From contig QPGO01000148.1 of assembly GCA_008632985.1 (NCBI GenBank), positions 1 to 64,000 on the forward strand: a stretch of 64,000 nucleotides of DNA, written 5' to 3'. This stretch comes from Psammoneis japonica. Its lineage: Eukaryota. Under the pieces are notes generated by a model, which searched no databases, was not told the origin of the DNA, and saw only the letters and a list, made by a program, of their open reading frames with translations. This document shows positions 220 through 59,782 of the stretch, in pieces. Each line of letters begins with the position of its first letter. The stretch's first letter is position 1. The translations under genes and the position numbers were made by a program.

Positions 220-3122
220 ATGGGCACACGTGGCATTCCATGGTACGGCGACGCTCCGAGGCCTCGATGGCCAGTTGAACAACAACCAGATTTGGTATTT
301 GAGAAACCGAAAGCACCGTTCAAGTTCAAACCTGAGAACGTGAAAAGATATGGATTACTTTCCAAAAAGTGGAAGACGGAATCTGTCAACAGATTAGAGG
401 TGTCGGAAGCTGGAGCTTATATGTTATGGGACGGACACAGTAAACCGCATTGCCAAAATCCCCGTTCTGATCGTGGGAAGCTTAACAAACTGTCGAAAGA
501 ACAAGGTGTTCCTATCAATAGAATAAAAGGGACGTACATTGACCCTGGCGAGTTCGTGCACATTGACCATGAAAGTGATTTTTGGCGTGATTGTTTTGCA
601 CCCCATTTGTCCAAGTTGGATGTCAAGGGATTGGTTGATGACATATCGAAGTCTCATTCGGAAGATACTGGTGACCGCCTAAGGGGCAATGTCACTACAG
701 GCGGTGGATATGCTTCACAAAACACACGGTTGAATGAAGACGGAGTAACAGAACCTCAGGTCACTAAAGGGCTTAGGAAACAGCACGTGGAAACAATGTG
801 TTGCATGTCTGACATACTTTATGATTGGGTGAAAGCTACTCCTGGATGGGACGAAGTGCCGTTCACTGCAGACAAACGGCGGAACGATTACTTTGCCTCC
901 AAACTTTGCGACAAATTTGGTTTGAACCGGATCAACAAGAACGGCAAACAATCACAACTGTTCGAGCACTTTACATTGGCTGTGACTTCGGCGGATGAGT
1001 TAGATCCTATTACCAAACTGGCTGTATTGCTTGGTTGCCATGTAGACGACTTGAATTGTAGGAAAAAGAACTACAACGCTCTTATGTGTATCTACTTTCA
1101 TGTGTGCATTGATGGTGAGTTATTACTGTGGCATGTCTTTCATTTTTGATTTGTTAATGTATACGCTCTAATGTCATTATTGATTTATTACCTGTTAGGC
1201 AAATGGCATCGAATAAGTCTAATCGGATACAGTCGTCGTTGCTGCTCCGAGTACTTCATCCGTCTAGCTGGCAGTGACGAGTTGCTTTGCCAGATGTTGG
1301 ACTTCTTCCACTCCTTGCCGAAAGAGTATCGCCAAATCGATGCACGTTTCTTGCTACCATCACGTTCAGTTGGGGTCCACTGTCCTTTCCCCAACATGAA
1401 CAAAATGGTGTGGCACGCAGCCTTCGCCTCTGCCATGCTGTGCAGGCTGCGGTCTTTTCCAGTCTCTAAGGAGCGAGCTTGCGAATTGCTTCTACCAGTG
1501 GGATGGTTGACCACCCCTAATCAGATGTACGAAGTGTACAAAGGGTGGGCGAAGAACGGTCTTCCCAAGTGTAATCTCACAGAGGCGTTCATTGATGAAT
1601 GCGTGCATCGTTATGGTTGGCTGTTGCGTGGCGACGGCAGTCGCTTGCAGCCGGCATTCACCTGCTCCACTACAAATGTGGGGATTTGTCATTCACTGTT
1701 TGATCTTCTTCAATCCATTCGCAAGTCTGATGCTGGAGAGTTAGATTGTGACGGAGTGCTCAAGCTTCTCACTCACTGCGACAAGAAGAATGGCGTTCCA
1801 GTTCAAAATGTCGTTGGTGTGGCGGACATTGGAGCACAGACTTCGGTTGCAGTCGGCAGCACAGTGGCCATGTACGAGGATGCGACATTGGTGGAGCAAG
1901 CTCGAGTGTGTCCTTCCACACGCACATGCAAGGTCATCAACGAGACGTTTGGCATTAGAACTCCTGTGGTGAATGAGTGTTATAAGAAGTTTGCCCGACT
2001 CACTGGCACAAGTGCAGCTGTGGCCGAGAATGTTCCTTGTGAAAAACTCAGAACTTTGGGTGAAAATGCAGACTGTGTGTGACGTCTGAGCTTGTCAAGA
2101 GTGGCATGTCTCAACGGATTCAAAAGAATGGCCATTGCTGCAGGCCAGACACTGTTCACCACGATCAATCTATCTTTGAAATTGAAAACGGAGTTAGGAT
2201 AGAATCGTTCAAGAAGCACCATTCGGACGAAGGAGAGGAGCATGATCTGGTGCGTGAGCCAATGAAACTTCCCCAATGCAAGATCAACAATAGAATTGAA
2301 ATGGATTGTCCTTGGGTGCTGGGGAAGTTTGCATCCTTGAAGCCGGCAGAAGTAAAAACTTCCGAAACGTCTGTGCTCCCAGAAGACCGCAAGAAGAACG
2401 AGACTCGAAAGAAGAAGAGTGCCAAGTTCAACAAGAACAGTCACTCTGGCATAGGAAGAAACCACGCTTGGGAAGCGTCTCTTCGGGCAAAGATGGACAA
2501 AGATTCTGAGCTTGACTTCGAGATCAGCAAATGTGAAGAGGATGATCAACCTTGCTGCACCAGTGTCAACAAAGATCTTCAGTTAACGCTCACTCTCAGC
2601 AGAAGAAGCGTCACTCGAAACTCGACACGTCCTGACTTGGAAAGCATGTTTGGAGCTAACCGATCAGACGGCACATGTCGAATAATAGAATTGGCGAAGC
2701 TGGCTATGACGAGTCTTGGTGCAGTGGCTTCTCGGAAAAGGAAAAGAGGGAAACGTCAATTGGTCCATTGCACAACCAATGAACAATTTGGTCGGGATCC
2801 AATTTTTACTGCCACCGTTAATTCAGCGAAACAAGTGCTTTTGCGGAGGAACTACAACGATTGCGTCTTGCCATTGGAAGGACTGGTGGCATGTGAAAGA
2901 GATGTCGCGTTCTACCGGACACGTGCACAAGCCGAAGCCGCTGTTCTTCTGAAAGCTATCTTGCATCACACGCCGGAAACTAAGACTCAGTCGGGGATCA
3001 AGACGGACCCAAAATGGGCTGTTGACCTTCTACCAGCTTCAAGAATGAATGTTTGGGTAGAGATTTTGTGGTGTTGTACACATGCACTACCACTGGTCAT
3101 GGCAAAAACTCAAGAGCAGTGA
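220..3122 (+). pseudogene. TET/JBP-like (HxDxxN ... RxSxxxYxR) plus C-terminal HhH/ADDT-like protein; intron 1115-1198; probable 2-bp slip near 2075; 5' end uncertain
   Basis: ORFs 220-1149 and 1171-2082 join in frame via GTGAGT...TTAG (D-G|KWHRISLIGYSRR). Motifs CHVDDLN, RISLIGYSR and AENVPCE. Removing one TG from gactgtgtgtgac fuses 2079-3122. Collinear motifs with ORF 45159-48854. Confidence 0.6.
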
Positions 3123-32891: not shown

Positions 32892-35717
32892 TCACCAGAG
32901 ACCCGGATTATCACGCTGAAACTGCTCCACAAAGGTGTCGAAAAGCAAGGGAAGTACGTCAGGCTTGTTCCCTTGTGGCACAATCCCGAGACTCTTCAAG
33001 ATTTCTTTTGCGGCCGTGAGAGGGAACGCCGTGTACACTATCCCATGCTCCGAAAACATTGCTTTGCGTGCGGCATCGTCCATTTCCAGCCACAAGATTG
33101 CGATAATCGCGGACAATACCAAGGGAAGTGATTCTCCCGGAAGCTCGTAGTCACCATAATTTTGAAGCACAGTTTTCTTTCGCTTCGGCAAAGGCTTCTC
33201 GGCCAGTTTTTCTTTCAACGCAGGTGCGTTCAAAACGCAGGCTACCTGCTCACATGTCATACGCGTGGAGTCTTTTGAGACGTGATCTAGAAGCTTCTTG
33301 TACAGCACGGTGCCCTTCTTGCAGCTCACGTTGTTTAACAATGAAAATACCATCTGCTGGTACCCCAAAGCCTTGTTCAGAGTGTCGGTGGTTTCATTGG
33401 CCAATGCCTCGCGCAAACTCTTGTCAACGGCATAGATCCGGGATGGGGGAGCTATCGATGAGTCTGAGCCGACGTCAATCACCTCAGGCAGCAACGTTTC
33501 CGGAGGTGAGGGCCGAACTTCATTGGCTTCAAAGCCCTGGGATGGCGGAGCCTCGTCAGATACCGCCGGTGATCCGTTTGTGCTTACTACCTTGCCCTCG
33601 GGCGATGGAGGATGCTCGGAGGACACCGCTGACGAGGGCGTAAACAGGAAGGCTGATTCTTGAGAAGCCAATGACGTGGGGGTATCCAGATCAACGTTGT
33701 CGCAATGATGCATGATGGCACGTGCTGCGACGTCGTCGTCCTCAAGACCGTTGCCTTCGATAGAGAGGTGATCCACTTTGACCTTGCTCACAAATTTACC
33801 AAGGAGTTCGAAACTGGCGTTGCCCAAATCGTTAGTAGCAAAGTTCACGTACTTCATCTCCTTGATATGCGGGTTCTCCATTAGAGCATTTATAATACTC
33901 TCAAGGCCATGGTCGCCGAGTTCAGCATCAGCGAAGTTCATCTTCGACAGGCGCTTTTGGGTTTTCAGGAGCTCCCCAAAAGCATCTGCTCCCTCTTTCC
34001 CAACCGTAACGGCTTCAGCACTGAATTGTTCCAACTGGCACCCTTTCTCTTCCAAGCCAATAAACACCTGTTTGCACTCTTGAGGGCCCAGGCTTGTGTC
34101 AGAGACATTCAAGTGCTTGATGCCTCGGCTCAACTCAAGGACAAGGATGAGCAAGCGAACTTGATGCGAAGCTAAATTGGCACCAGTTAGATCCAAAGCC
34201 TTGAGATTGTTGAAAGGCTCAGTCCACGGCTCCAATGTTTTGCTCGCCAAAGCATGGAGAACCCTATTCCACACCTTCGCGGTCATTCCTCCTCGCAAGT
34301 CGTGGAGATCGAGCGTCTTCAGATGAGGCGCCGCCTTGATGAGTTTGCCAATGGCCATCAATGCGGTGTCATCGTCGGTGTCCGAACAAGCCGTAATGTT
34401 GCCAATAGCGAGCGCTTCCAGGGACGCAGCACGTGCCGCGAGCTCTCCGAGAATAGCGGCGATTGTGTTTGCTTCAAGGCCCGCGTCACAGAGCGAAACA
34501 ACTTGAAGTGAGTCCTTTTCCAGCTTGCTGAAGAGGGTTGTCACTGCTAGAGCAACGTCGGGGCCCATCGCATTTTTATCGCATACGAAGTAACGGAGAT
34601 TGGGTGCTGGACTCAAGGCATCGCATATAGCACTCATGACCGCTGGACCGGAATCCGAATGGGTTTGGGTTAGAATCTCGGTGATATCGATGAACTCGAT
34701 ATGTTGTCGCACGTCGTTTTCTTTCAAGAACGATGCGATTTTGGAGGCTCCTTTCTTCGTCATTGGACAGCCCGAAAAAGTCAACTTGGTGACCTTCAGT
34801 CCCTGCTTCAGGCCACGTTTCATACACGGAGCCCAAGCCTCCCCGATGAGCTTCATAGCGCCATGCTTGTCCAAAGTTTGACGGCGAGGTAGTCCACTAA
34901 GAGTTATGCCCTCGCCGTTGTTGTAGAAGCCGTCAAGACCGAGATCGACCGGCATGGAACGGGCCTCCTTGAACAGCTGGGAGAGATTGGAGCGAATGGA
35001 CGCCTCATTGGGTGAAGCTTGATGTGCACCTTGGAGAAAACCGGGTGCAGTGTTGATGCTTGGGGGGCGGAGATGCTCACGCACTCCATCCAACTGGCGG
35101 TGCGGGAGGACAACGGGCTGAGACTTCGGCAAAGCGCGGGCGTCTGGGCCGTCTTCGAAATAAAGGCGCCGCTGGAGCTGGAGCGCGTACTGGCGGTCAT
35201 AGATTTCTTGAGCACGAACGGAGTTGTCGGTGCGTCGGACAGACCGGTCGATATTCGTGCACCTGCTGTTGTCGGTGTGGCGGCGGACCGAGTGGTCGAC
35301 GGTCGAGCGGCTGTTGTGCCCAACGTAGCTGGTGCTGCCGATCGACACGTTCGCTCCTTCGCCCACATTGAGCACCAATGGTGGAGGCTGCTGTAGAGGC
35401 TGCGGTGTCTCTTCCTGCGCCGCTGTTGCCACTGTCGCGATCGGCGTTGTCGGCGCCAAAATGTTCAATTGTCGCTTGCGATACTGCAGCAAGTCGGCTA
35501 GTTTTTTGCGGTTGTGCTTGTGGTTGGGATTGTCCTCATTCCAATATTCCCACAGACTCGGGTACTTGAATCGGTTTTTATGACAGTCGAAGATCGGACC
35601 CAGCCTCGTGGAGTCATCTCCGCGTCCGCAAAACTCGCTGAATCCCCCGTGGTCTTCGGCCATTTGGGTGAATTCAGCATCCAGATCTTCCGTCCAGGGA
35701 TCTGCGAGGCTCTGCAT
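32892..35717 (-). CDS. ribonuclease-inhibitor-type leucine-rich repeat protein, RanGAP-like paralog with low-complexity N-terminus
   Basis: Repeats such as LRYFVCDKNAMG, LKTLDLHD, LKALDLTG, IKHLNVSDTSLG, MNFADAELGDHG; first ATG at 35717. Confidence 0.75.
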   Translation of the reverse strand: MQSLADPWTEDLDAEFTQMAEDHGGFSEFCGRGDDSTRLGPIFDCHKNRFKYPSLWEYWNEDNPNHKHNRKKLADLLQYRKRQLNILAPTTPIATVATAAQEETPQPLQQPPPLVLNVGEGANVSIGSTSYVGHNSRSTVDHSVRRHTDNSRCTNIDRSVRRTDNSVRAQEIYDRQYALQLQRRLYFEDGPDARALPKSQPVVLPHRQLDGVREHLRPPSINTAPGFLQGAHQASPNEASIRSNLSQLFKEARSMPVDLGLDGFYNNGEGITLSGLPRRQTLDKHGAMKLIGEAWAPCMKRGLKQGLKVTKLTFSGCPMTKKGASKIASFLKENDVRQHIEFIDITEILTQTHSDSGPAVMSAICDALSPAPNLRYFVCDKNAMGPDVALAVTTLFSKLEKDSLQVVSLCDAGLEANTIAAILGELAARAASLEALAIGNITACSDTDDDTALMAIGKLIKAAPHLKTLDLHDLRGGMTAKVWNRVLHALASKTLEPWTEPFNNLKALDLTGANLASHQVRLLILVLELSRGIKHLNVSDTSLGPQECKQVFIGLEEKGCQLEQFSAEAVTVGKEGADAFGELLKTQKRLSKMNFADAELGDHGLESIINALMENPHIKEMKYVNFATNDLGNASFELLGKFVSKVKVDHLSIEGNGLEDDDVAARAIMHHCDNVDLDTPTSLASQESAFLFTPSSAVSSEHPPSPEGKVVSTNGSPAVSDEAPPSQGFEANEVRPSPPETLLPEVIDVGSDSSIAPPSRIYAVDKSLREALANETTDTLNKALGYQQMVFSLLNNVSCKKGTVLYKKLLDHVSKDSTRMTCEQVACVLNAPALKEKLAEKPLPKRKKTVLQNYGDYELPGESLPLVLSAIIAILWLEMDDAARKAMFSEHGIVYTAFPLTAAKEILKSLGIVPQGNKPDVLPLLFDTFVEQFQRDNPGLW

Positions 35718-36689
35718 TCTTCTTGTTTGATGAGTTGGTTCTTGTTGACAATCAAAAGGCAAGATTATGAGAGGTAGAGGCACGAGCGCAGTGTGCTCTG
35801 CGTTCGGATTCGTGCCGTGCCTTGTGAGAGATTTTGTGAAATTTCCCGTAGATTTCCGCAGGATTTGTACGAAGAGTCGCGTAGATGACCCGCACACGAC
35901 CCGCTCCAACCGAACGAGCGTTCACAAGACTTCGTGTCGGTTGGAGTAGACATGAAATTTTGCCGACAGAAAGCAAAAATGGAGGGAAAAAGTGGTCGCT
36001 CTCTAAGTGATTTGAGACGAGAATTTGTGTTCAAATCTGATTGGCCGTAAGGTCGCGATTTTTTGAATGCAGCCGTGTGTAACACATGGCAGAGTCGTCT
36101 ACTGAAGCTCTGTTCATTAATATGAACATAAAGTAAGTATCAAAATTAAAGATGAAAATTGCGCGGGGCATTGAATGTGAATTGTTCAAAATGTCCTATG
36201 ATATATTGGAATCCATGCAGTCTCGGTCAGTCATTTGGTTTGTATAGTGATCCTGTAGAAGTGAACGTGAAAATAGTCATAATTAACTTCCGTTGTTAAG
36301 AACCTACGTAGGAATCACAGTATGTTTTCCGCGGGCGGACAGGAATCACGACTCGGAAATCACGATCAGCAACAGGAGGACCAGAAGAAAGACATCGAAG
36401 GGCAGAAAGACATCGTTCACAAACCCGATAGTTCCTAAGTAAATAAAGAGGACCAAAACTCTCGCAAACATCGATAGTGAAATCGTTTGCGTCACCGACC
36501 TACGTCATAGATCAGAAACCGCAGCACTCTTCGCTACGGTACATCCTCCACAAGATTCAAGATGAAAAACAATAGCAATGAAGCCGGTCCGGTTGCTCGC
36601 GTTTTTCATCACATTGCTCTCTCTCTCTCTCTCTACGAGGGGTTGAATCATGGTGCAAGGCTATTTATTCGCACTAGTGGTTGATGACT

Positions 36690-37445: not shown

Positions 37446-38344
37446 TGTAGAGTAGCAGTTTTGCTACAAGATGAATCCCCGATGCAATCTTCTTATAGTT
37501 ACTCTAAAGTATGCCAGAGAACGATGGATCAAGAGTGCGGCTTGTCTTTCGCTGCTGCAGAATCAAACTCTAACAACAAATCAAACCATTCTTTCAATCT
37601 GAACGCCCGCCGGAGTTTCGAGATGACCAAGAACTTGTTTTGTCTTTTCCAGTCAAAAAGAGGTTAATCATCGCCTTCAACTTGAAGAACGAATTCCGAA
37701 CAACCTTCGCCTTTGTGAGTGTGAAAGCACCGCCGGGAAGCTCGTCGAAACCGGAGTAACCATCGGTTTCAATGTGCGCAGTGATGAAAGGCACTATTTC
37801 CTGGGTTGATGATGCAGTTGTGTCAAACTAATGACTCGGCTTCACAGTTTCGAACTTGAATTCGGAGATTGTATGCTTTGGTTCTTTGGAAGACCCCTTT
37901 TTGCTTGGAACAAACACGGTTTTGTCGAAGTGAATGATGAGTTTCGCAGGTTGCGACCCCTCGGTTTCTCGTGGGCTTTCTGAGCCCTCTTCTGAATCAT
38001 ACGAGTCCAAATTGATGACAGAACGTTTTATACTTCGTTTTGATGCACGACTATCGTGTTCGGGTTGCCTGGTTGCGGGCCGCTAGGCGGCGGAGCGGCG
38101 GAGGTCCTCATGGTTGACATCGATGTGTTTTGATGGTTGCATCAAAATTTAGTAGTACTAATTTTGTGTAGGACCGTATTGAAGAGAACCTGATTTTTTT
38201 TTTTCGAAGAAAAAATTTTTTCGAAGAAAAAAAAGAAATTCTCACCATCGCCGCGCCAAATTTTCATTTTTTTCAAGATTTTTCTTAGATTTTTCAAAAA
38301 AAGAGGTTAATAACGTATCTATTCATTGTAAATTGTACTAACAA

Positions 38345-38631
38345 GTTTAACGTCATTAACGTCAAAAATATGAATTATTATCTGTATTAATAAAAAAAAA
38401 GTTATAGAAAGAAAAAAATATTCCGAATTCCAACGTTGGAATGCTCTGTAGAGACTTGGTAACTTTTCTACGGAGTACGAATTCCAACGTTGGAATTCGG
38501 ATTATGTAGAATTATTACTAACGCTCTACAGAGCATTCCAACGTTGGAATTCGGAATATTTTTTTCTTTCTATAACGTTTTATTACTTGTTTATGAACAA
38601 CATATACAGTTTTGACGTTATTGACGTTAAA
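38345..38631. repeat. AT-rich palindrome centred at 38488/38489
   Basis: Perfect 53-bp inverted repeat 38401-38453 / 38524-38576; central 22-bp palindrome CGAATTCCAACGTTGGAATTCG; outer imperfect arms. Confidence 0.95.
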
Positions 38632-38876
38632 TATGTCGGTATAGTTATTAATGAAGGTATATGGAATTAACTGCTACAAAAACAGAAATACGAGAAAAAC
38701 TACTGTTTTTCCATATAATTTTCAATTTTTCATCACTCAGAAATTTTTTTTCTGTCGACGAGCAAAATTTTCAGATTTTTGACAAGTTTTTGAGATTTAG
38801 AATGTATGACACATCCAGTTTTTCTTCTCTCTCACCGCATGTGTTTTCTCCATTGATCACAAACAACAACACAACC

Positions 38877-39671
38877 ATGGCCTTTCCACCATCAATGCGG
38901 TTCATATGTCGATCAGTGTCGTTCACATTCACCCTTTCTTTAGTTCTGCCATCACTATTTATCTACGCCTCCTCATCTAATCCCTCTGCTCCGTCATCTG
39001 AGATTCGCATGGGCACGACCATCGTGGCTTGTCGCTTTGATGGTGGTGTTGTGGTGGGAGCCGATACGCGCACGTCGGTTTCGGGCTATGTCAGCAATCG
39101 TTATGCGCACAAACTATCACCGCTGTGGGATAAATGCATGGTTTGTCGTTCCGGGAGTGCGGCGGATACGCAACATGTAGTGGATCAAGCACGATGGACC
39201 TTCTGGAAAAAGCGGTTCCACAAAACAGTATCGCAAGCTGCTCATTGGTTGAGATATACAGTCAAGAAGGAGAAATTGGAGAGTGTATCATTGATTTGTA
39301 CCGGGTATGATGATGACTTACAACGAGGAATTATTTATAGCATTTCGCCCAGTGGTAGCTTGGTGGAGGAACCATGCTTTACTGCGAGTGGATCCGGTTC
39401 GAGTTATATTTTGGGGCATTTGGTAAATGGCCATGATTTGAAAATGAAGCAAGACGAGGCTGTCAAATTTGTCAAGGATAGTATTCAATTAGCCATGGAT
39501 CAGGATGGCAGTTCTGGAGGATTTGTGAGGATTGTAGTTATCACCAAGGACGGACAACGTGTCATTACGGTGCATCCCTCTCATGTACGAGAAAACAAAA
39601 AGAACAATGACGATCAGTCGTTTCAACGTTTACCAGGCTTTGCGCCGCCAACACTTGTGAAACGAGGGTGA
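38877..39671 (+). CDS. 20S proteasome beta subunit (beta1/PSMB6-like) with hydrophobic N-terminal leader
   Basis: G|TTIVACRFDGGVVVGADTRTS, RSGSAADTQ, SGSGSSY, DGSSGG. Confidence 0.9.
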   Translation: MAFPPSMRFICRSVSFTFTLSLVLPSLFIYASSSNPSAPSSEIRMGTTIVACRFDGGVVVGADTRTSVSGYVSNRYAHKLSPLWDKCMVCRSGSAADTQHVVDQARWTFWKKRFHKTVSQAAHWLRYTVKKEKLESVSLICTGYDDDLQRGIIYSISPSGSLVEEPCFTASGSGSSYILGHLVNGHDLKMKQDEAVKFVKDSIQLAMDQDGSSGGFVRIVVITKDGQRVITVHPSHVRENKKNNDDQSFQRLPGFAPPTLVKRG

Positions 39672-41675: not shown

Positions 41676-44600
41676 ATGTGCTGCAAACATTGCTTCTCGA
41701 CTGTTCCATTGACTCAACATGACAACTCCAACAGCATCGTAAACATGGGTGATTGCCTCCATTCCAGCAAATGTCTCAACCCGGAGTGTTCAGTTGATTC
41801 CTTTTTTGTCTGCGAATGCTGCTGGAACAGCAGCAACACAAACAGCAGGTGGTCGTCATCTTCCAGTTCTTAAAGATTGGAAAACCTGCGTTGAGCACGC
41901 CAAAACTCCAACTCATGTGCAATCCTTTAAAGCTTTGAAAGCCGCACCAACAAGCAGTGCAAATGCCGTGTGTGCGCCGGCGGAGCCTGCACACGACGAA
42001 TGTTGGTGCAACGATGACAATGACGCCTCTGTTTCCAAGAGCAAGGAGCCTTCCAACCAAGATGATTGGATTTGCGACGTCAATGATGCCGGCTCACGAT
42101 CCTCCATTGCGCATTGATGATCTCCGACAAGGTTTTGATCCGGACTCCAACAGCCCGGCCTTTTTTTGGTGCGAGCATTCGCACCCCGGACAAGGCATCC
42201 AGAAATTGACAGCTGGCGCTTTCGAATTGCCCGTCACCGAGGTGACCAAAGAAGAGGCCCATTTTTCACTTGTGATGGCTAGCCTGCTTTCACAACTCAC
42301 CGAGAAACAACGTGAATTGTTGGCAGAATGCATGCTGCAAGCCACAAACAGCCGTGATCCAGACTTGTCCATTTTTCGTTGGACTCATGTCCCCACTTCT
42401 GTGAAAGATTTTGAAATGTTGCATTTGTCCAGCAAACGTGCCATTGTGCCAAATTTGCCTCATCCTGTTCCCAGGAAAACCGATGATGGCAGTCATTCCC
42501 ATGTTTCCTTTAAAGACGTGCTTGCAAATGAGTTGGCAAAAGCCACGCAATTTGACAAGTTCTGTTTTGATGCGGACGTCATTGTTCAAGATTCGCAACC
42601 TGCCATTTCGTGCACACCGGCGGCGCATTCCTTGTTCATGGAACTTAAAGAAGATGTCGACAGTTTTGCATTGCATCTTTGGGTGCGAGAATGGCGTGAT
42701 GACTTTGATCCCAATGGCACGAAGAAGTCACGCAATCAAGTGTGGCTCAACACGCACACCTGCTGCCCTCCTCCCAATTCTTCCAGTGGACGCCACACCT
42801 GCTTCATGGCAATGTCGTCCAAGGGAGAAAATCATGAAGTTGTGGAGACAATGTTTGAACGCGAACTGCAGTCGTTGTCTGAAGAAAGCCATTGGTTTTA
42901 CCATGGCGGACTGCAGAAGCTCGCGCGGGTTAAAGCTGGCAAACTCAGTGTTTGTGTGGATCGGCCTGAACGTTCCTGCATGTTTCGTGTTGGAGACCAC
43001 AATGGCAGCTGTTCAACGTTTTGGGAACATGCCTGTCATGCAGATGGAAACTGTTCTTTCAATCACTTGCCTCATTGTCAGCTCTGTCGCAAAGCACATG
43101 TGAGCAACCATTTTAGCACGTCCGAGGATCCTTCTGATGTCGCCGACAATTCACAGGAAGAAGGAGCACCAGTGGATGGCGCAGTTGCAATCAATGTTCC
43201 TCCTGTTTCTAGCACATGTCCACACAATGCTTGTGCATCCTGGAATGTGCTCGACACTGCGTTTCGTTTTCTGGCTCCGGCTGACTGCCCCTGTTCATGT
43301 GACCAACGCGAAGGTGCACCGAAACCTCCCACTGGCAGGGAAGTGACTGTCTTCAACCCGTCGGCACATGACATCCAATCCACTCAAGACTTGGCCACAG
43401 ATCCATCCACATCGACCGATTCTTCTCGTCGCAGATGCAAACGCCAACGTGTGGCCACCCCAAGACAATGGTTGGCCTCCATCAAACTCACTGTTCCCTG
43501 GTTGCAGCAAGCGATCGTGTTTGCGCATCACAACATGAGAACACATCCGCCGGGCACCCCAAGTGCCAAGCGCTTTTGGACCAAAGCTAACCTCACGGCC
43601 CATCTTCGTACTTGTGCCATCATCCAACACCACATCGACACAGCGCACGCAGCTGCAAAATGCAATCTGCCTTGCCCAACACATCCAGCACCTTGGCTTG
43701 ATCCCAAAGCACTTTCACGTTGTCATCATGCACCAATGCACACCATTGGTCTGGGCAATGTTAAAAGTGATTTTGAAATGATGTCCAAATTGTTCTCTCG
43801 ATTTGAACTTCAGGCAACCTTTGGAAAGCAAGCAAACAAATGCTTGCGGTCCATCCAGTCCCTCCGATCAACCAAACATTTTGCGGCTCATCCACTGTCC
43901 ACCAGCAAGTGGGGCACAGGTCCCTGGGTCAGTGAAAATTACTTCTTTTGGGCAAGGACAGTAAAATTCATGGTTGCGCTGCCTGCGCTTCACCAACAAC
44001 GGGTGATGGACAATCACTCGGATTGTGCAGGTGTGTCACGGATGTTGCTTCGATTCGCTTCTGCCACACAAGCTTGTCTGAGCCAAGTCATGTCTTCGGA
44101 GCGCGTTGTTGGGGACCTTCACGAAATGGTTTTGACATGTTTGGATGCAATGGTCGAGATGGACATGTGGTTGATGAAAGCACCCTCAGATGAGGCAGAC
44201 AACGATGCCGTAGAAGGCGACGGTGAAGTTCAGAAGAAAAAGAAAAAAAGGCGAACTTTGTGAAATCTGTTTCACTTGGAATGCTGGGAGTCACGGAATC
44301 CCACCAACATGATGGACCGGCCATTCTGCATTGGGAGGGTGACGATTCTGGAGAAAGTGGTGTGCAAACTGTGAGGCCAGAGGTCAGCATCAAACGCAGC
44401 AATGCAGACTGGCAAACAATCGCTTTGCGTCACATTCACCAACAGGCGACCATTTCTTGGCTTTTAGAACGTGACAGTGAGAAAGGTTCATCGAAGAACA
44501 GACGTCTAGATGGCATCTTCAAAATCCACAGCAACTGGAACACATTGTTGGAGGCAAGACAGCAATGCCTTCCCTTTGCTGGCCTTGTGTCGTCCGATTG

Positions 44601-44955
44601 CACTGTGTGGTTGTTGTTTCAACCAGTGGGTGAAAAAGGAGCTGCTCGCTCCTCTGCAACTGCAGTTGCTTTAGAATTTGTGGATGAGGAAGGTGAAGAA
44701 ATTTTGGACTTGTGTTGGATGGCGCCAGTTCAAGCAACAGACAGGAGAAAATCATTTGATGCGGCAACAGATCTTTGCAACAGTTTGGGACATCAGTTTG
44801 TGCTGGCATTGCCAAGGATGGAAGATGATGGTGAAACTTTCCTAAACAGCTTTTATTGTGTCAGCCATCTGTGGAATGAAAGAACCAGAGATGGATGCTT
44901 TGTGAAAATGGAACTCAGCTTGGACGTTTTCGACGATTGGTTGACAGCCGGCTAA
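41676..44955 (+). pseudogene. CMC/EnSpm-type transposase, frameshifted (A-rich run near 44240)
   Basis: WRDDFDPN, VDRPER...HNG, PMHTIGLGNVK correspond to the CACTA DGF, DxPAR...HxG and MHxxxLGxxK motifs; Cys-rich N-terminus. Confidence 0.8.
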
Positions 44956-45158: not shown

Positions 45159-48100
45159 TCATTTCATGTTCCTCTTTCTCTTTATGAAGTGGAGCTGCAC
45201 AGATTGGTCCCTCATTGCGTTTGACATTTTGTTTTTGGCCAAAATGTCCAACATCGCCTCTGGTGGATTAGACAGCAGTTTGTCAAAATTGAACTCAAAT
45301 GCAATTTGAATGGGACCATGATCCCAGGTCGACCCGGCCCAATCATTGTCCTCACACAGTTCTTTGGCAATCTCCTCCATCTTTTTTTCCTCACTTTTGT
45401 GTGAAAAGTTTTGGATCAATCCACCGGGAGGCAGCTCTTCGGGGTCACTGGAACCATCAAAGTGACAAAGAAAATTCGCCTCATCGTGGAAAACAAAAAA
45501 TGACATTCCTGCAAAACAGACATCGCAGCAGTTTACCCTCCCTTTGCTGATCCAGAAGTGAAACATTTTGCAAAGAATGTTCTCAACAAAACGAATGGTG
45601 AAGTGAGTGTCTTTCTTGTCATCACCCCCGGGGTTGTTCAACTGCACGGTGAATGCACCCTGTGTGGTTTGAGCCAAACGGAACATGTCCGCATCGTCCA
45701 TCTTGCCCAGTCCACATTCTTCGGCAATTTTTATGTCAGGGAGGGAATCCTTTTTGCAGTGGCAATGATGCAGCATCCAAATGGGAAGCTGGCCAATTTC
45801 TGCCATGATCGCAATCGAATGATTGAGACACAAGACGTCGCATTGCGGGGAGAATTCAGACAACTGATTCATCAGTTTCTTGTAAATGGAGACGATGTCT
45901 TTGTTTTGTGGCTTGTTTGCATGCTCATTCCAAATGTCACAAATCCACTTTCCCTTTTCATCATTCCGTTTTTTCCATTCAGCCTTGGTTGGCAAGGGTG
46001 GTCTCTTGCTGCGTGACGCACATCGCAGAGGGATGCCTCTAGAATGTGCCTCTTTTACGTGGACCATCATTTCGTGAATGAGATGTCCCAATCCGCAGGG
46101 GTCGCTTGGTGGCTGGAAGGCATTGACGGATGAAAGAACCAACGCAACTGCTCCAAAGCAACATGACTGCGCCGGGTGCACCTCGAAGCAAGTCTGAACA
46201 GCGACAATCTGCGGCAACGTAAGTGAGAATTTGTCAATCATTGCGACAATGAAGTGCAGAAAGAGCTGGTGGCATGACGTTGGTTCCATGTTGCAGTCGC
46301 CTTTTAATGCATCGATTCCTTTGCATCCCTCAAATCCTGTCAAGTGATCATGGACAATTGCCGGCTCCAGTCGCTGCCGGTGCACGGGCAAGTTTTGGCA
46401 GGTGCGAATGGCTTGTGTTGTGATGGGCAAGGCAAGTCGAATCCTCTTCTCCGCAGTTTCTACAGAACTGCGGGTGCAAGCAATGACAGCATCTCTTGTT
46501 TCTCCATCATTTGTGATTTTTGAAACAGACAAAACTGGGGTCATGTCTTTGTTTTGGCCGTTGCATTCATCCGAGTGGCAATCCGTAATTTTGCCAAATT
46601 TGGCATTTGCCAGACGCAGTGCCTCCACGACATCATTTGCTGAGGCATCCGGCAATGAACCCGCATGGTCTTGACGTTGGTTTTTCATCTCTTCATCGTG
46701 CCACAATCTAGATGTAAAAGCAGGATTCAGTGTCTCCGCAATTTCAGACATTGACTCAAAAAAAGGCATTGCTTCCTCAGTCCCTTTCCCAACTCGAGGC
46801 CGTGCAACGCCATCAGCATGGCCTTCCCTTGTAGTGCTTGTGTTGGTGCAAACGCCGAAATCTGCAAAGTGGTCCTTTGGTTGACGATGGGTCCCAGTTT
46901 TCTTGGGCTTGTTGCTTTTCTTTTTCTGAAAACGTTTTCTCTTGCCAGTTTTCTTGCCAACATTGCCTTTCCTTGTTTTCTTTCCCTGGTTGCTTTTCGA
47001 CTCACGTTCATGGCATTTGTCAATCAGCACGCGCGATCGGTCCCAGTCAATGCGGCAGATTGGGTGTTTGTTTGGAAAGTGGTCAAGCACCAACATGAAG
47101 TCATTGCAATGGTCGGAATCAACATCATGCAAGGACCATTTGATGTCAGTTTCATCCTGTCCAAGTGTCAACGCCAAATCCAGAATTGGCACTTGGCAGT
47201 GGGGGATGTCTGCTCTGCTTGCCAAGTGAACCTGCAGTTTCGACTGGAAGACAACATGCAGATGGGTGGCACACTTTTGCCTGCATTCTCCAGACAGTTT
47301 CCCCAAATTGTCAAGTGCTTTGGCTTTTCCAGAATTACAACGGAAGTGAGCACTGTTCATCTCCTCAAACACAAAAACAACATTGAACATGTTTTTGGCA
47401 TGCAAGCTCTGTTCTTGCAGCAGGGAACGGGACAACACTGTTTTCTCCCGCCGAGTCTTGCAGTTGCCAGTGAAAGTTGGACGCTGCATCTGCAAGGGCA
47501 GTGCTGCCTCAAAAGCGCTTGAATGGCAATCAGATGATTCGTCTCTGCTTCCATTGGGCAAATCAGAATCGGAGAAATCAATGGGAAGTGCTGACACAAC
47601 TGCGCCATCATGCCAATGCGATGATGATTGGTCGCTCTGACTTGAGAAAACAGAATCAATGACATCACTGTTTGTTGATTGTTCCTCGACGTGATGCACA
47701 GAAGCCGAGTCCTCATGGCGTTTTGCTTCTTCCCGCATGTGCTGCACACTCAGCAAGCAAAGCAACCGGTCTGCTGGTCTTCGCTTGCGAGGAGGTGGAG
47801 ACCGTCCCAGGGGAGATTCCAGGCTGCGTGACCTGGATGTGGCAGATCTTGTGCGGTGTGAGATTGGACTGCTGCTTCTGTTTCTGCGGAGTTGCATTTG
47901 ACAAAATGGGACCATGCCACTGTTGGTGGGTTGACTTGTTCTGCTTGAACTCCTTGAGCGGATGCTGTCATCTGCAGAACGTGCGGGAGGATGGCTTTTG
48001 TCCCAACCGCGACTCTCAGATTTCCTCAATGCACCCAACCTGTGTGAGCGCAACGAATGCCTGGGTTTGCGAACACGCGATCGACCCCGACACCTGGATG

Positions 48101-48854
48101 GTGACCTCAACATTGTTGGAGACCTGTTTTTTGACCTGGAGGGTGACCTGCACCTGGATGGTGACCTGTGCGGTGACCTGTGTCTACGCCGAGGTGACAA
48201 TCTAGACCTTTCATTGGAAGAATCCAGAGACCTTCGACAAGACCATTGCGGTGAACTGGATGGAGACCTTTGGCGTGACCTCTGCCGCGATTGCAATCGA
48301 CCTTGGTGATCCCTGCATGGAGAGCAGGGAACAGCACCACAACGTTCCCTGCAACTGTGCCGGGAACTTGAGTTGTGGCAACCCATGGATGGTGACCGAC
48401 ACCGTCGCCGATGCCTTCGACAAGAATGAGACCTAGACCCAGAACAACGAGACCTTGATTGACAAGGAGAACCACGCAAAGAAGCTCCAGAATGACAATG
48501 ATGTCTGGTCCGATGACGCGATCGAGACCGAGAACTTGACAAAGAGCGAGACCGAGAACTTGACCAAGACCGGGACGGCGATTGACACCTTCGTCGTTGG
48601 TGGGAATTCGACCTCGACAGGCATCGCCGTTTAGACAGTCTGCGTTCCCTGGATCCGTCGTTTCGATTTGACCACAACCGACCTGTGGAACTTTGAACAG
48701 GCGATTCGGATCTTTGACGAATCAAGCGACCCGGCGGATCTCTTGATGGACGCGCACTCCTTGTCCTTCTTCCCTTCGGAGCGCCGGATCTGCTCCAAGC
48801 GGGAGCGTCACATTTGCCTTTTCTGTGATGCATGGATGGTTGGAATTTGAGCAA
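45159..48854 (-). CDS. 1231-aa RS-rich protein with TET/JBP-like and HhH/ADDT-like motifs (hypermutated cargo)
   Basis: DGVARP, CHSDECN, RDAVIACTR, FVENILCK; collinear with the 220-3122 protein. Confidence 0.6.
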   Translation of the reverse strand: MLKFQPSMHHRKGKCDAPAWSRSGAPKGRRTRSARPSRDPPGRLIRQRSESPVQSSTGRLWSNRNDGSRERRLSKRRCLSRSNSHQRRRCQSPSRSWSSSRSRSLSSSRSRSRHRTRHHCHSGASLRGSPCQSRSRCSGSRSHSCRRHRRRCRSPSMGCHNSSSRHSCRERCGAVPCSPCRDHQGRLQSRQRSRQRSPSSSPQWSCRRSLDSSNERSRLSPRRRHRSPHRSPSRCRSPSRSKNRSPTMLRSPSRCRGRSRVRKPRHSLRSHRLGALRKSESRGWDKSHPPARSADDSIRSRSSSRTSQPTNSGMVPFCQMQLRRNRSSSPISHRTRSATSRSRSLESPLGRSPPPRKRRPADRLLCLLSVQHMREEAKRHEDSASVHHVEEQSTNSDVIDSVFSSQSDQSSSHWHDGAVVSALPIDFSDSDLPNGSRDESSDCHSSAFEAALPLQMQRPTFTGNCKTRREKTVLSRSLLQEQSLHAKNMFNVVFVFEEMNSAHFRCNSGKAKALDNLGKLSGECRQKCATHLHVVFQSKLQVHLASRADIPHCQVPILDLALTLGQDETDIKWSLHDVDSDHCNDFMLVLDHFPNKHPICRIDWDRSRVLIDKCHERESKSNQGKKTRKGNVGKKTGKRKRFQKKKSNKPKKTGTHRQPKDHFADFGVCTNTSTTREGHADGVARPRVGKGTEEAMPFFESMSEIAETLNPAFTSRLWHDEEMKNQRQDHAGSLPDASANDVVEALRLANAKFGKITDCHSDECNGQNKDMTPVLSVSKITNDGETRDAVIACTRSSVETAEKRIRLALPITTQAIRTCQNLPVHRQRLEPAIVHDHLTGFEGCKGIDALKGDCNMEPTSCHQLFLHFIVAMIDKFSLTLPQIVAVQTCFEVHPAQSCCFGAVALVLSSVNAFQPPSDPCGLGHLIHEMMVHVKEAHSRGIPLRCASRSKRPPLPTKAEWKKRNDEKGKWICDIWNEHANKPQNKDIVSIYKKLMNQLSEFSPQCDVLCLNHSIAIMAEIGQLPIWMLHHCHCKKDSLPDIKIAEECGLGKMDDADMFRLAQTTQGAFTVQLNNPGGDDKKDTHFTIRFVENILCKMFHFWISKGRVNCCDVCFAGMSFFVFHDEANFLCHFDGSSDPEELPPGGLIQNFSHKSEEKKMEEIAKELCEDNDWAGSTWDHGPIQIAFEFNFDKLLSNPPEAMLDILAKNKMSNAMRDQSVQLHFIKRKRNMK

Positions 48855-49524: not shown

Positions 49525-50757
49525 CTTCCCTGTGTCTCCGCGTCAACTGCTGACAATTGCACAGCAACGGACGAGTGGGACTGCCAGTCCGTCGCCCAGC
49601 GACATTCCGCTGATCGGTTTTCAACAATGAGACCTGGAGAACTGGCTGGGGCACCCTCGTTGTGTTGTGCAGTTTGAAGAAAAGGGGACCGGCTGATCTG
49701 GGTTGTGTTGGCAGACGGCGCAAGCTCCTTTTTCCTTGACATTGTCAAGAACATGTGTGTTCCAAGGCCACCATTGTCGGTGGGTCGTCTCCGTCTGTCA
49801 CATCTCTTCCCTGTGTCTCCGCGTCAACTGCTGACAATTGCACAGCAACGGACGAGTGGGACTGCCAGTCCGTCGCCCAGTGATGTTCCGCCAATCGGTT
49901 TTCAATGACAAGACCTGGAGAACTGGCTGGGGCACCCTCGTTGTGTTGTGCAGTTTGAAGAAAAGGGGACCGGCTGATCTGGGTTGTGTTGGCAGACGGG
50001 GCAAGCTCCTTTTTCCTTGACATTGTCAAGAACACATGTGTTCCAAGGCCACTGTTGTCGGTGGGTCGTCTCCGTCTGTTGCATCTCTTCCCTGTGTCTC
50101 CGCGTCAACTGCTGACAATTGTGCAGCAACGGACGAGTGGGACTGCCAGTCCGTCGCCCAGTGACATTCCGCCAATCGGTTTTCAACAACAAGACCTGGA
50201 GAACTGGCTGGGGCACCCTCGTTGTGTTGCACAGTTTGAAGAAAAGGGGACCGGCTGATCTGGGTTGTGTTGGCAGACGGGGCAAGCTCCTTTTTCCTTG
50301 ACATTGTCAAGAACACATGTGTTCCAAGGCCACTGTTGTCGGTGGGTCGTCTCCGTCTGTTGCATCTCTTCCCTGTGTCTCCGCGTCAACTGCTGACAAT
50401 TGTGCAGCAACGGACGAGTGGGACTGCCAGTCCGTCGCCCAGTGACATTCCGCCAATCGGTTTTCAACAACAAGACCTGGAGAACTGGCTGGGGCACCCT
50501 CGTTGTGTTGTGCAGTTTGAAGAAAAGGGGACCGGCTGATCTGGGTTGTGTTGGCAGACGGCGTGAGCTCCTTTTTCCTTGACGTTGTCAAGAACACACA
50601 CTTTCCAAGGCCACTGTTGTCGGTGGGTCGTCATCGTCTGTTGCATCTCTTCCCTGTGTTTCCGCGTCTGTCGCCCACCGACAGTCCGCCAACTGGGTTT
50701 TCAACAACAAGACCTGGAGAACTGGCTGGGGCACCCTCGTTGTGTTGTGCAGTTTGA
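49525..50757. repeat. 281-bp tandem repeat, ~4.4 copies, inside the CACTA element
   Basis: Unit starts at 49525, 49806, 50087, 50368, 50649; last copy internally deleted. Confidence 0.95.
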
Positions 50758-53800: not shown

Positions 53801-54199
53801 GGCATGTTGTTGGGACAAAAGCAGAAGCTTTGTCCTCCACTGGCTGCATCAATGAAGTGGCGCGCATGCAAGAAGCGTCAGAAAATGGCAGCTGGCAAGA
53901 GGGGATTCTTCGATTTGACCACCCACGTTGCCGATGACATCGTTCTTTGTCGGTTGACAAACAATCACTGCATTGCTTTGCACGGTGGTTGGATCTTCGA
54001 CTCCAATCATGAATTCGCTCTTCCGGCAAAAGACATTCAGTGGTTGAATTGGTGTTTGGGGAATGACACATTTGAAACAGATGCACTGGCAGAAGATCCA
54101 AAATCAGCAGTGGAGGAAGCAGTTTTTTTTGAAATGCCGAAGGCTGTCCAAACAAGGTTGCGTAAATGCAAGCGGCAAGACAATGCAACCACAGGTTAA
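50801..54199 (+). pseudogene. ~1130-codon GNAT acetyltransferase + papain-like (C39-like) peptidase fusion, broken by three in-frame TGA
   Basis: ORFs 50579, 51560, 52277 and 52685 share one frame. GNAT-like NHGL..FLI and CCESLGF (=YYESLGF). Peptidase QQGEKDTCVFLSLAS, NHCIAL, WIFDSN. Confidence 0.65.
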
Positions 54200-55569
54200 T
54201 TCTTCTCACTTGGCATGGTTGTCGGGGCCAACGATTTCCAGGCATGCAGGCGTTTGCGAGTCACCAATGTTTTGCTGACAAGCCCGGCCTTTTCTGCAGC
54301 ACGCAACAGTTGGCACGTTTGCGGCAGTGTGTGAGGCTTCCCACCAAGGACATTCATCATGAGCCCCTTGGTTTGAAAACACGTGCCCGCGGGTTGATCC
54401 GCAAAATGACTGAGCAATTTGTGCACGCCGCTCATTTCCTCGTCCGTGTGCGGGTGTGCGTTTAACCAACAGCGGCATCCATCAACAATGCATTGGCTCA
54501 CAAGAGGCTTCGTCCACTGATCGTGCTTTTGGACTTTCACGTTGTCCAATGGGGTGGCGCAAAGCAAAGGAAGGAAACGATTCTTGGTCGCTGGCGTCAG
54601 ATCACTTCGTTTCACAGGAGCAAACACAAGCAAGCCGCTGCCCCACGCATCTTGCTCTGTCACTTTGAGTTTCTTTAGGACAGTTTGTTGACGCTTGGCT
54701 GTGAGACAAAACTGTGAAGTTGCAGTCTTCCATGTCATGACAATTTGTTTGCAATCCATGCCCGTGGAGGTGCCACGATTGGGAAGAGATGATGTCATGC
54801 TGCAAAACCGATTGTGATGATCGGGTTTTGCTAAAACTGTGCCAGCTTGCAGCCATTTGCCCATGGCAACACAGGCAACAGCATCAACAAAATGCTTGGG
54901 TTTAGCCAGGCATGACAGCATGCATCCACTGCGTCCGCCTGTCACAATTTCGTCAACAACAATCTCAAAGGAATGGCGGTGAGCCAACCGACCAAGAGAT
55001 TCTAGAAAGTTGTCGCTGAGTGTTGCACCATTGTTTGCCAGCATTAATTCTAAAAACAATGCAGCGATTGGCACCTTCTTTGCAGCCTGCATCAAACAAC
55101 GGAGATGAATGTGGTTGAGACAATCGTTTTCGCACTCACTGAGCTCCGCGGAGCTCAGAGTGCCTGGCACATGATGCGGCAGCACAATGGTGTGATTGCG
55201 TGTAAAAGAGTCAAACACGTCGTCCGGATGCATTGCTGCGCTCGGACCATGTTCTGCACTGAACGTGCTGGCAGTCCAACAGTGGACAGGCCCATGATCA
55301 CCGGCCACATAACTTCCACATGCAATCAAACATCCGTCATTGTGCCCTCCCGTCACAGAATTAATTGCAAACAAATTTGCATCGGAGCCGTTTGGCATCA
55401 CTTTGTGCAGCAGCAATTCACCATCAAAGTGACGAAAAACAACTTCTTCTAACTGCTTGTGGTGGCCGATGTCCATGGAAGAATTCATCAAATCTTCGCC
55501 ATTGCGTTTTAAGCCACGCGGGCTAACGGCAACCAAATTGCACCCCCAATTGTTTGCCATGTCGTCCAT
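54196..55569 (-). CDS. class-III PLP-dependent aminotransferase-like protein (hypermutated cargo)
   Basis: NGSDAN, GSYVAG, LFLE, VVDEIVTGGRSG, MGKWLQAG. Confidence 0.75.
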   Translation of the reverse strand: MDDMANNWGCNLVAVSPRGLKRNGEDLMNSSMDIGHHKQLEEVVFRHFDGELLLHKVMPNGSDANLFAINSVTGGHNDGCLIACGSYVAGDHGPVHCWTASTFSAEHGPSAAMHPDDVFDSFTRNHTIVLPHHVPGTLSSAELSECENDCLNHIHLRCLMQAAKKVPIAALFLELMLANNGATLSDNFLESLGRLAHRHSFEIVVDEIVTGGRSGCMLSCLAKPKHFVDAVACVAMGKWLQAGTVLAKPDHHNRFCSMTSSLPNRGTSTGMDCKQIVMTWKTATSQFCLTAKRQQTVLKKLKVTEQDAWGSGLLVFAPVKRSDLTPATKNRFLPLLCATPLDNVKVQKHDQWTKPLVSQCIVDGCRCWLNAHPHTDEEMSGVHKLLSHFADQPAGTCFQTKGLMMNVLGGKPHTLPQTCQLLRAAEKAGLVSKTLVTRKRLHAWKSLAPTTMPSEKN

Positions 55570-56447
55570 GGCGTCGTTTGGGATTGTTCAATGCGCAAAA
55601 GAGCAAGATGCAAGATTCAAGAAGAGTCCCAAAAGATGATTGGATGGAAAAGAGGGGAGGGATCGCAGCTCTGTTGATGGGCTTACACAGCGCAGAGGAT
55701 TTGTGAAAATGAGGTGGAGCAACGCATGTGCTCTCAATCACCAAAAGCGCAAAACACGTGCATTCTGCTGCACTGCGCATTTGCAGACAAGCCCTGCACG
55801 CAGGGCCCCACACATGTTCCACACGCTGAAAGAGCAGCACGCGCGCGCACATGCACTCCCACCCAATCGTGTGATTGCACAATGCATTTCATTCAACAAC
55901 GTAGATGAAGCAAGCACTTTAAAAAAGAACACACATGAAAAATCAAACTTCAATTGTGGAAAATCATGCATTCAAAAGTGAACCAATGAGAACCCAATTT
56001 TTGTTCAAGGAAAATTTTGTTTCAAATGGGAGGAAAGAACAATCTTCTTAACACAACAGGTCGACATGGTTGTCAATGTTCATTTCAGAACAACAATGCT
56101 TGATTGAAACAATGAAAAATGCAGAAAAGAACAAAACTGAATGCAATTCAAAAACCGTGCAATGAGAACATGCAACCGTGACTTTGCAATTGTGTTGAAC
56201 AGATTCGGCTCGTCCCGGACCATCCACAAGCACAAAAAGCGATTAGAAGTCGAAAACACAATGACAAATTCATTTCATCAGACACAGGTGTCGGTCGTCA
56301 GCCTTGATCTTACAAACACATCGAGGGCAAACACTTCAACAGAGGGAAACACAACCCCGTCAAGGACAGATGTTGCAACAGTGGGGAACACAGGTGGGTG
56401 CATTTGAAATCAAAGTGTGCGTTTGGAAGCTAACATTGTGATCTGAC

Positions 56448-59205: not shown

Positions 59206-59782
59206 CAAGGCAACGCAACACATGCGCACGACGCAACACAATGTGCAATTGCTTGGGATTGATTTCACCGGCACAGTCAGGGTTCGGCGGATGTGTTTGT
59301 CAACAGAGTCAATCGAAGCACAGCTTCGTAAATGACAGTTGTTCAGAGCATCAGCAAATTTGTTCACAGTTGTGATCTGTTTAAATGGAGAGGCTGTCGT
59401 CATCCGTTGTTCATTCAGAGCTTTGCTCTAGTTAAATGTCCGTTGTTCATTCAGAGCTTTGCTCCAATTAAATGGAGATTCCACGGGCATCCAAACATTG
59501 TTCAGAGTCGTGCTCTGATTGAATGGACACAATCACAGCAGCGCTCTGAATGTCAGCACAATGCTCTAATTTGCAAATCAATGCTCTGGATGCAATGCTC
59601 CAAACAAAATTCTATGGCTTCGAATGACCAAATTTACTCTGATTGTGCTCTGTGTGGGCGTCATTGCCTCAATTGGCTCTCATTTGCTCTGAATGTCCCA
59701 CATTGTGTCGGGACAATTTAAACAAAGCGTTGCTCAGAATAAAATGTTCGGAGCATGAATGAAGAGAATCTCATCTGCAGTG

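Follow-up and report, generated by a model that had tools for sequence, protein, structure and literature searches.

The window analysed here, 64,000 nucleotides of Psammoneis japonica DNA (assembly GCA_008632985.1, contig QPGO01000148.1, positions 1 to 64,000 of the forward strand), contains on its minus strand an open reading frame (ORF) of 1231 codons, 45159-48854, which ends in TGA. A first-pass annotation, made from the letters alone, had described this ORF as a transposon-borne protein that joins a TET/JBP-like part to a part resembling amino acid:DNA transferases (AADTs). The five ordered motifs on which that description relied are all present, in the order given: DGVARP at residue 681, CHSDECN at 759, RDAVIACTR at 787, CNMEP at 854 and VENILCK at 1090. 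The features of the ORF, of its convergent neighbour and of a distant paralogue are as follows, where model numbering is ORF residue minus 478.

220..3122 (+): distant paralogue with introns, not TpA-depleted, carrying DGVTEP, CHVDDLN and RISLIGYSR
41743..44955 (+): transposase-like gene, convergent with ORF 45159-48854 and 204 bp from it
45162..45536 (-): C-terminal beta-rich region and long terminal helix, model 629-753; barely covered by the fold searches
45537..46295 (-): AADT (aGPT-Pplase2)-like helical domain, similar to helix-hairpin-helix (HhH) glycosylases, model 376-628
45567..45584 (-): ENILCK (ENxxCK motif), model E613, N614, C617 and K618; aligned with AADT E243-T244-x-x-C247-K248
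46296..47420 (-): TET/JBP-like double-stranded beta-helix region, model 1-375 (ORF residues 479-853), whose N-terminal lobe carries conserved H55 and H74
46470..46496 (-): RDAVIACTR (R-x5-Y-x-R strand), model R309, C315 in place of the consensus Tyr, and R317
46560..46577 (-): HSDECN (HxDxxN motif), model H282, D284 and N287
46881..46967 (-): Lys-rich linker inside the oxygenase-like region, model 152-180; predicted local distance difference test (pLDDT) 54-62
47421..48854 (-): N-terminal 478 residues, low-complexity and Ser/Arg-rich (S 23%, R 20%), outside the conserved core

An unnamed protein family

No internal stop interrupts ORF 45159-48854, whereas each of the other five frames over the same 3.7 kb contains 25-61. 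Its openness nevertheless had to be read against the composition of the region: between 42 and 49 kb the observed/expected ratio of TpA is 0.02-0.14 per kb, so that TAA and TAG are nearly absent and long ORFs come cheaply, those in the other frames reaching 234 codons. Moreover, the change of TpA to CpA or TpG cannot, by the codon table, create an in-frame stop, so that no conclusion about function can be drawn from the frame being open. The same facts (depleted TpA, long ORFs in all frames, no in-frame stop arising from the change) could be taken to mean that the ORF is a chance frame left by the loss of TAA and TAG. Against this stand the stop counts, the existence of 93 homologues, and the result obtained with a hidden Markov model (HMM) of 31 relatives from which the sequence of the window itself had been excluded: run against 1338 six-frame ORFs, it recovered the present one at E 8.6e-125. 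This last result rules out a chance frame for the conserved core, and we give the explanation as a whole practically no weight. On the strength of its sequence relatives, we regard ORF 45159-48854 as a real gene of an unnamed eukaryotic family.

The HMM match begins at about residue 489, and the Ser/Arg-rich first 478 residues are a different matter. Met codons occur at residues 8, 157, 248 and 314 and further on. Since one relative, P0100, also has a low-complexity N-terminus, of 1034 residues, the extension could follow the same habit; alternatively, it could be read-through, and it is possible that this part of the ORF is a chance open frame.

A search with ORF residues 440-1231 of 1.84 billion representative proteins returned 93 relatives at E ≤ 1e-3, of which 35 were at E ≤ 1e-10 and 3 at E ≤ 1e-30; the best (E 1.2e-41) shares 30% identity. 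Ten relatives were checked; each derives from a metagenome or run assembly and is either unnamed or labelled 'hypothetical'. Pfam gave no family for ORF 45159-48854 at E ≤ 1, a word-index homologue search with the ORF core gave no match, and a search of the ESM Atlas with the same core gave no usable match. Searches of PDB sequences produced nothing useful, whether the query was the ORF or its family profile, the transposase or its own profile, or the exons at 220-3122. A lookup of sequencing runs found one DNA run that contains the stretch and is probably its origin, and no RNA run was among the matches listed. Elsewhere in the window there is a second copy neither of ORF 45159-48854 nor of the transposase gene.

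The listed motifs are the most conserved positions of the family. The His of HxD (H282) is present in 64 of 64 homologues, the Asp (D284) in 62 of 64 and the first Arg (R309) in 58 of 64; by the account of the first-pass annotation, its reading would have failed if HxD and Arg were not conserved or if structure prediction showed no 2OG-oxygenase or HhH fold, and neither result was obtained. Among the remaining positions, N287 is kept in 51/64, R317 in 59/67 and Tyr at 315 in 36/67, and a His stands at model position 286 in 13/64. The ENxxCK motif is equally marked (E 54/57, N 54/59, C 59/61, K 53/60), and H55, H74 and D633 are kept in 40/47, 44/47 and 49/51 homologues, respectively. By region, the conserved positions are distributed as follows.

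N-terminal lobe: E19, R47, H55, H74
Middle of the oxygenase-like region: G189, P208
HxDxxN and the strands that follow: H282, D284, N287, R309, R317, S319
Domain junction: C376
Helical domain: G445, R470, H534, G543, P546, W548
ENxxCK: E613, N614, C617, K618
C-terminal region: D633

A part of this family signature is found a second time in the window. The family HMM matched ORF 217-1146 over profile positions 149-286 (E 9.3e-5) and ORF 1150-2079 over positions 294-355 (E 6.8e-5). Both matches follow the order of the profile, and up to E 10 the window gave no hit other than these and ORF 45159-48854. A predicted GT-AG intron, placed at 1115-1198 from the sequence, would join the two exons in frame (...HVCIDG followed by KWHRISLIGYSRR). 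Pairwise BLASTP of ORF 45159-48854 against the exons of the 220-3122 gene found nothing significant (best E 0.48 and 0.69). Of the motifs said to be common to the two genes, those of the front, oxygenase-like part are thus supported by the HMM, whereas NM and AENVPCE remain a resemblance without HMM support. Tyr makes up 2.9-3.3% of the first two exons; given this normal Tyr content and the introns, the 220-3122 gene is more likely than ORF 45159-48854 to be functional.

Two predicted folds in one chain

AlphaFold2, supplied with the family alignment, modelled the full 753-residue core with a pLDDT of 88.4 and a predicted TM-score (pTM) of 0.87, and the 380-residue front domain with values of 89.0 and 0.86. 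When the front half was compared with 48,161 representative chains using VIA-align, NgTET1, TET2 (7.4/7.3), CcTet (6.8/6.8) and CMD1 (6.5/6.6) came out on top, followed by AlkB, ABH1, ALKBH3/5/6 and FTO. By title, 48 of the 50 front-domain matches listed are Fe/2-oxoglutarate (2OG) oxygenases, the exceptions being yeast Cdt1 and one uncharacterised protein. Among the predicted viral structures of BFVD, Foldseek matched a Sylvanvirus JBP1/TET protein (prob 0.75). As modelled, the front half is a TET/JBP-like Fe(II)/2OG-oxygenase fold whose nearest solved structures are those of the TET/JBP group. The Lys-rich linker within it is possibly a nuclear localisation signal.

The spacing of the motifs agrees with that of TET2. 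R1896 of TET2 is a 2OG-binding residue, and R309 is its candidate counterpart in the family. Excerpts of PMC6244454 place H1382, R1383, D1384, H1386 and N1387 of TET2 in an HxDxHN motif and give R1896 and Y1902 downstream; in that numbering, the spacing within HxDxxN and that between R309 and position 315 (R-x5-Y) are the same in the family and in TET2.

The back half was compared with a set of AADTs assembled from gp46 of the PaMx11 record. Among the matches listed for its 951 relatives, PF18724 was found in all, and 33 sequences were aligned; E241, E243, T244, L246 and C247 are invariant in this alignment and K248 nearly so (consensus QEVETILCKWKSH). An hhalign comparison of the family's helical domain (63 rows) with the 33 AADTs gave Prob 58%, P 9.7e-5 and a score of 37.2 over 114 columns, and placed VENILCK of ORF 45159-48854 (ENxxCK in the family) on VETILCK of gp46, in register. 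All 21 controls scored lower (12.5 for the reversed profile, 11.6-19.9 for 20 column-shuffled ones). The same comparison aligned family residue D633 with the invariant AADT residue D262, which forms part of the proposed leaving-phosphate pocket. In the BFVD search, the best match of the back half was an SP10 '5-hmdU DNA kinase' (E 8.9e-3, prob 0.97, 340 columns), and a '5-hmdU DNA kinase helical domain' protein was also matched (TMt 0.49, prob 0.72). The link that had been drawn to the ExxLCE-type ending of the transferases thus finds its counterpart in the alignment of ENxxCK with the AADT catalytic E-T-x-x-C, and the model of the back half is an AADT-like, glycosylase-like fold of two helical bundles, as in PaMx11 gp46. 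In the portions of PMC11472151 available to us, E243 and T244 of gp46 coordinate a metal in contact with O4 of the thymine that has been flipped out, and C247 is put forward as the residue that attacks C6. According to the corresponding part of PMC8989533, mutation of the Cys or of the nearby Glu abolished the activity of M6 gp51 and ViI gp247.

Some of the sequence and fold comparisons gave weak or negative results. At E ≤ 0.01, Pfam found no family in any of 35 homologues (PF12851 and PF18724 both absent); at E ≤ 10, none of the 25 families listed, out of 65, was matched by more than one of the 94 alignment members, and PF18724 was not among the matches listed for family members. Foldseek against the PDB returned nothing at E ≤ 0.001 for either model, only rows at chance level. 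The structural check against TET/JBP and aGPT-Pplase proteins that had been suggested recovered both folds through VIA-align and BFVD, while the PDB search by Foldseek and the Pfam families TET_JBP and aGPT-Pplase gave no match. In the back half, hhalign with the whole family against the AADTs reached only Prob 9.5% and P 0.0034, and the base-stacking Trp146 of the AADT FGPW motif lies opposite a Leu, the family's G-x-L-x-x-N-H being aligned with FGPWIGFK; a GLLPxW motif follows this segment. In the front half, no column between D284 and R309 holds more than 13 His in 64 homologues, and position 300, where the distal His is expected, is Ser in 50 of 65. D284 and R309 are separated by only 24 residues, so that some of the sheet has to come from the N-terminal lobe (residues 14-112). 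Excerpts of PMC6244454 put the distal His of TET2, H1881, about 500 residues past D1384 and 15 before R1896. The first-pass annotation had itself cautioned that HxD and the Arg lie too close together for a complete double-stranded beta-helix, and the 24-residue distance without a conserved His bears out this caution.

Because the distal His is missing, the canonical triad of two His and one carboxylate is incomplete, and oxygenase activity of the front half is doubtful. H55 or H74 could, from their conservation, be a metal ligand that has been relocated in space. One could also suppose that the oxygenase-like half is non-catalytic and binds metal, base or DNA, the protein then being an AADT-like enzyme or a reader acting on 5-hydroxymethyluracil (5hmU) or 5-hydroxymethylcytosine made by the host. 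The missing His, the lack of a Pfam TET_JBP match and an HxD-to-Arg spacing far shorter than that in TET2 (as numbered in the excerpts of PMC6244454) speak for such an arrangement. By contrast, the retention of H282, D284 and R309 is what one would expect if the metal and 2OG site were functional, and two further His of the domain are 85-94% conserved; on balance, we consider a non-catalytic front half unlikely.

Transposase neighbour and TpA depletion

The transposase-like gene, 41743-44955, is represented by three pieces (41743-42114, 41939-44260 and 44227-44952) that a profile of 25 homologues matched at E 9.1e-5, 1.2e-285 and 1.1e-79 and that together span positions 58-1068 of its 1076. 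As the pieces are collinear, the gene carries two frame breaks; ORFs 41957-44263 and 44260-44955 are parts of it. Its 56 relatives (best E 4.1e-238) belong to clusters of up to 204 members and lie on contigs of up to 3.3 Mb; Pfam gave no family for the gene or for these relatives, and neither the gene nor its profile had a PDB sequence match. D248, D251, D335, E660, C374 and C377 (C374-x2-C377) are invariant, a pattern that would fit CMC-type transposases. The nearest named clusters in the Atlas, which serve as a lead only, are Plavaka transposase (0.91) and RAG1 (0.88). The fusion gene and this multi-copy, CMC/Plavaka-like gene face each other with their 3' ends; most probably, therefore, the fusion gene travels as a passenger of the transposon.

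The competing view, that ORF 45159-48854 is an ordinary host gene beside a transposon insertion, draws on the boundaries of the pair. No convincing terminal inverted repeats were found between 38 and 54 kb, even in a search with the sequence collapsed to purines and pyrimidines so as to allow for transitions, and neither terminal repeats nor a target-site duplication surround the two genes. The linkage to the transposase is seen at one locus only, most homologues being on short contigs that give no context, as with P0028, for which one contig of 2 kb was retrieved, and the 220-3122 paralogue has introns, normal TpA and no transposase beside it within the window. By contrast, ORF 45159-48854 has no introns, converges on the transposase at a distance of 204 bp and shares with it both the TpA depletion and the loss of Tyr codons described below; in addition, the available part of PMC12730594 reports TET/JBP genes as passengers of CMC-type and other fungal DNA transposons. 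We therefore consider an ordinary host gene unlikely and carriage by a transposon likely. The description 'transposon-borne' stands insofar as the ORF adjoins a multi-copy transposase-like pseudogene, and falls short in that this is a single adjacency without terminal repeats. Just past the 5' end of the ORF, at 49525-50757, about four units of 281 bp (92-96% identical) are repeated in tandem; they could be subterminal repeats of the element.

Both genes lie within a block in which TpA is almost absent. The observed/expected ratio is 0.00-0.18 per kb in two blocks, 6001-26000 and about 41400-64000, both with sharp edges, and 0.25-0.78 elsewhere; in the two blocks TG and CA are at 1.5-1.9 and CpG is down to 0.14-0.7. 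The second block begins at about 41.4 kb, some 300 bp upstream of the transposase gene. Tyr survives at 2 of 8 conserved Tyr columns in the transposase (3 now read His and 3 Cys) and at 1 of 7 in ORF 45159-48854 (4 Cys, 2 His). The share of Tyr is 0.1-0.3% in both genes as against 3.0-3.5% in their relatives, and the 1231 codons of the ORF include a single Tyr codon beside 64 for His and 52 for Cys. That conserved Tyr codons read His or Cys shows a change of TpA to CpA or TpG on both strands; the Cys at position 315, where the consensus is Tyr, is consistent with TAY becoming TGY. In view of this loss of Tyr codons, the copy at 45159-48854 is probably dead, an inactive relic.

The mutation process resembles repeat-directed point mutation, with a direction opposite to that of fungal repeat-induced point mutation. 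It had been suggested that thymine oxidation could account for the change at TpA. The accessible text of PMC11572971 describes 5hmU in dinoflagellates as enriched at repeats and cites older work favouring TA and TC, so that a link between thymine oxidation and TpA loss stays conceivable; that enzymes of the present kind are the source of the hypermutation is nonetheless a very improbable proposition.

The rest of the window contains further fragments and genes. A degraded copia-type reverse transcriptase fragment occupies 11251-12024 (-) in the first TpA-poor block (RVT_2 E 2.4e-5, under the Pfam cut-off). The second TpA-poor block holds pieces of genes for pyridoxal phosphate-dependent enzymes, a PALP fragment at 59737-60258 (-) (E 2.7e-20, profile positions 3-79 only) and a weak Aminotran_3 match at 54199-55587 (-) (E 1.1e-5), which may be host exons or captured fragments; enzymes of this class also accompany AADT clusters in phages. 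A 1634-codon ORF at 26922-31826 (+) has no Pfam match and lies in a region of high G+C (0.56-0.57) and strong C skew, with numerous internal direct repeats at 28-31.6 kb. In the block of normal TpA, an ORF of 1005 codons at 32892-35909 (-) likewise has no Pfam match, and 38661-39671 (+) encodes a proteasome beta-1/beta-6 subunit (Pfam E 3.6e-32; best PDB match E 5.2e-36) about 2 kb from the edge at about 41.4 kb. Directly upstream of the proteasome gene, 38306-38671 contains a 183-nt inverted repeat without spacer, 77% complementary, together with short perfect palindromes.

A possible two-step enzyme on 5-methylpyrimidines

By analogy with thymidine hypermodification in phages, discussed below, we propose, with a probability of roughly 0.6, that the family comprises enzymes that modify a 5-methylpyrimidine of DNA in two steps and that a CMC-like transposon carries them. 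The front domain would oxidise the 5-methyl group of T or 5-methylcytosine (5mC) to hydroxymethyl; the back domain would then flip the oxidised base out, and its Cys would attack C6, the oxidised substituent being replaced by a nucleophile or removed. For the transposon, the outcome may be altered epigenetic marks, used for anti-silencing or self-marking. What the analysis establishes is the family itself, its two folds and conserved motifs, the position beside the transposase gene and the mutational decay of the present copy; the chemical steps, the substrate and the benefit to the transposon are all inferred and should be read as conditional. The more specific idea, that intact members are single-chain eukaryotic enzymes which oxidise a 5-methylpyrimidine and process it through covalent Cys-C6 catalysis, and are the first of their kind, is one that we put forward tentatively and with considerable doubt.

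The closest parallel is thymidine hypermodification in phages. There, oxidation yields 5hmU, a kinase activates it, and the AADT, through attack of its Cys on C6, exchanges the phosphate for an amino acid; phage AADTs thus act on a phosphorylated base. The phage systems combine a 5mYOX T-dioxygenase or a dUMP hydroxymethylase with a 5-hydroxymethyldeoxyuridine (5-hmdU) DNA kinase and an AADT (PaMx11 gp46, M6 gp51, ViI gp247), so that TET/JBP-type and AADT-type folds are paired as they are in the present family. The likeness extends to E-[TN]-x-x-C-K in register, to the conserved Asp equivalent to D262 and to the best BFVD match, the SP10 kinase-AADT fusion. Co-occurrence of phage T-dioxygenases with kinases and AADTs is described in the excerpts of PMC13229309 and PMC8989533. 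Unlike the phages, in which the modules are separate genes, the family fuses both in one eukaryotic protein, and it further differs in its transposon setting, in having no PF18724 match, in the Leu at the Trp of FGPW and in that no kinase was found. Neither a 5-hmdU DNA kinase nor a P-loop was present in ORF 45159-48854 or in 38 ORFs of at least 120 residues between 48.9 and 64 kb, which is a further difficulty for the proposed pathway. The HMM of the family's oxygenase domain found nothing in 80 viral AADT loci (best E 3.9); by Pfam, its five best ORFs there were thymidylate-synthase-like, an exonuclease and DUF3310, with two lacking a match.

Transposon-borne TET/JBP genes of fungi (KDZ, Plavaka, EnSpm and other elements; types PU, AG and PE) provide a second parallel, since there too the gene stands beside a transposase of the CMC/Plavaka kind and the PE type is likewise visible only by structure-level comparison with CMD1, NgTET and CcTET (Kojima 2025, PMC12730594, in part). 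According to the same portion of that paper, the downstream His that completes the facial triad is retained in every fungal type, whereas the present family lacks it; the PE type has HxE where the family has HxD; and no fused AADT-like domain is reported in the text available.

In the pathways of JBP1/2 with JGT (base J) and of CMD1 (5-glyceryl-methylcytosine, 5gmC), TET/JBP oxidation likewise precedes or is coupled to the addition of a group on the C5 substituent. Their second step, however, is carried out by a glycosyltransferase or by vitamin C chemistry in the same domain, not by a Cys-dependent HhH-type transferase. The glycosylase-like fold of the helical half also raises the alternative of a DNA glycosylase or lyase, which would make the protein a one-chain TET and base-excision demethylase. 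Unlike QNG1/DUF2419 and the HhH-GPD DNA glycosylases, however, the family has a conserved catalytic motif of the AADT type, and we consider this alternative quite improbable.

We found no description of such a fusion in the literature, although an earlier one is possible. An abstract by Iyer and colleagues from 2013 is said to mention related aGPT-Pplase systems in some eukaryotes, and AADT homologues were noted in basidiomycetes by Lee et al. 2018.

The known TET/JBP oxygenases and AADTs are distinct enzymes. A eukaryotic family that is invisible to Pfam and combines both predicted folds in one protein suggests that DNA base chemistry extends beyond 5mC oxidation, base J and 5gmC. If the proposed two-step activity is real, it would write a new hypermodified base on transposon DNA or, alternatively, remove oxidised 5mC without base excision, as a self-contained demethylase through which the element would escape silencing. 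The fusion family would add to the epigenetic tools possibly carried by transposons, and it offers a concrete protein for assay.

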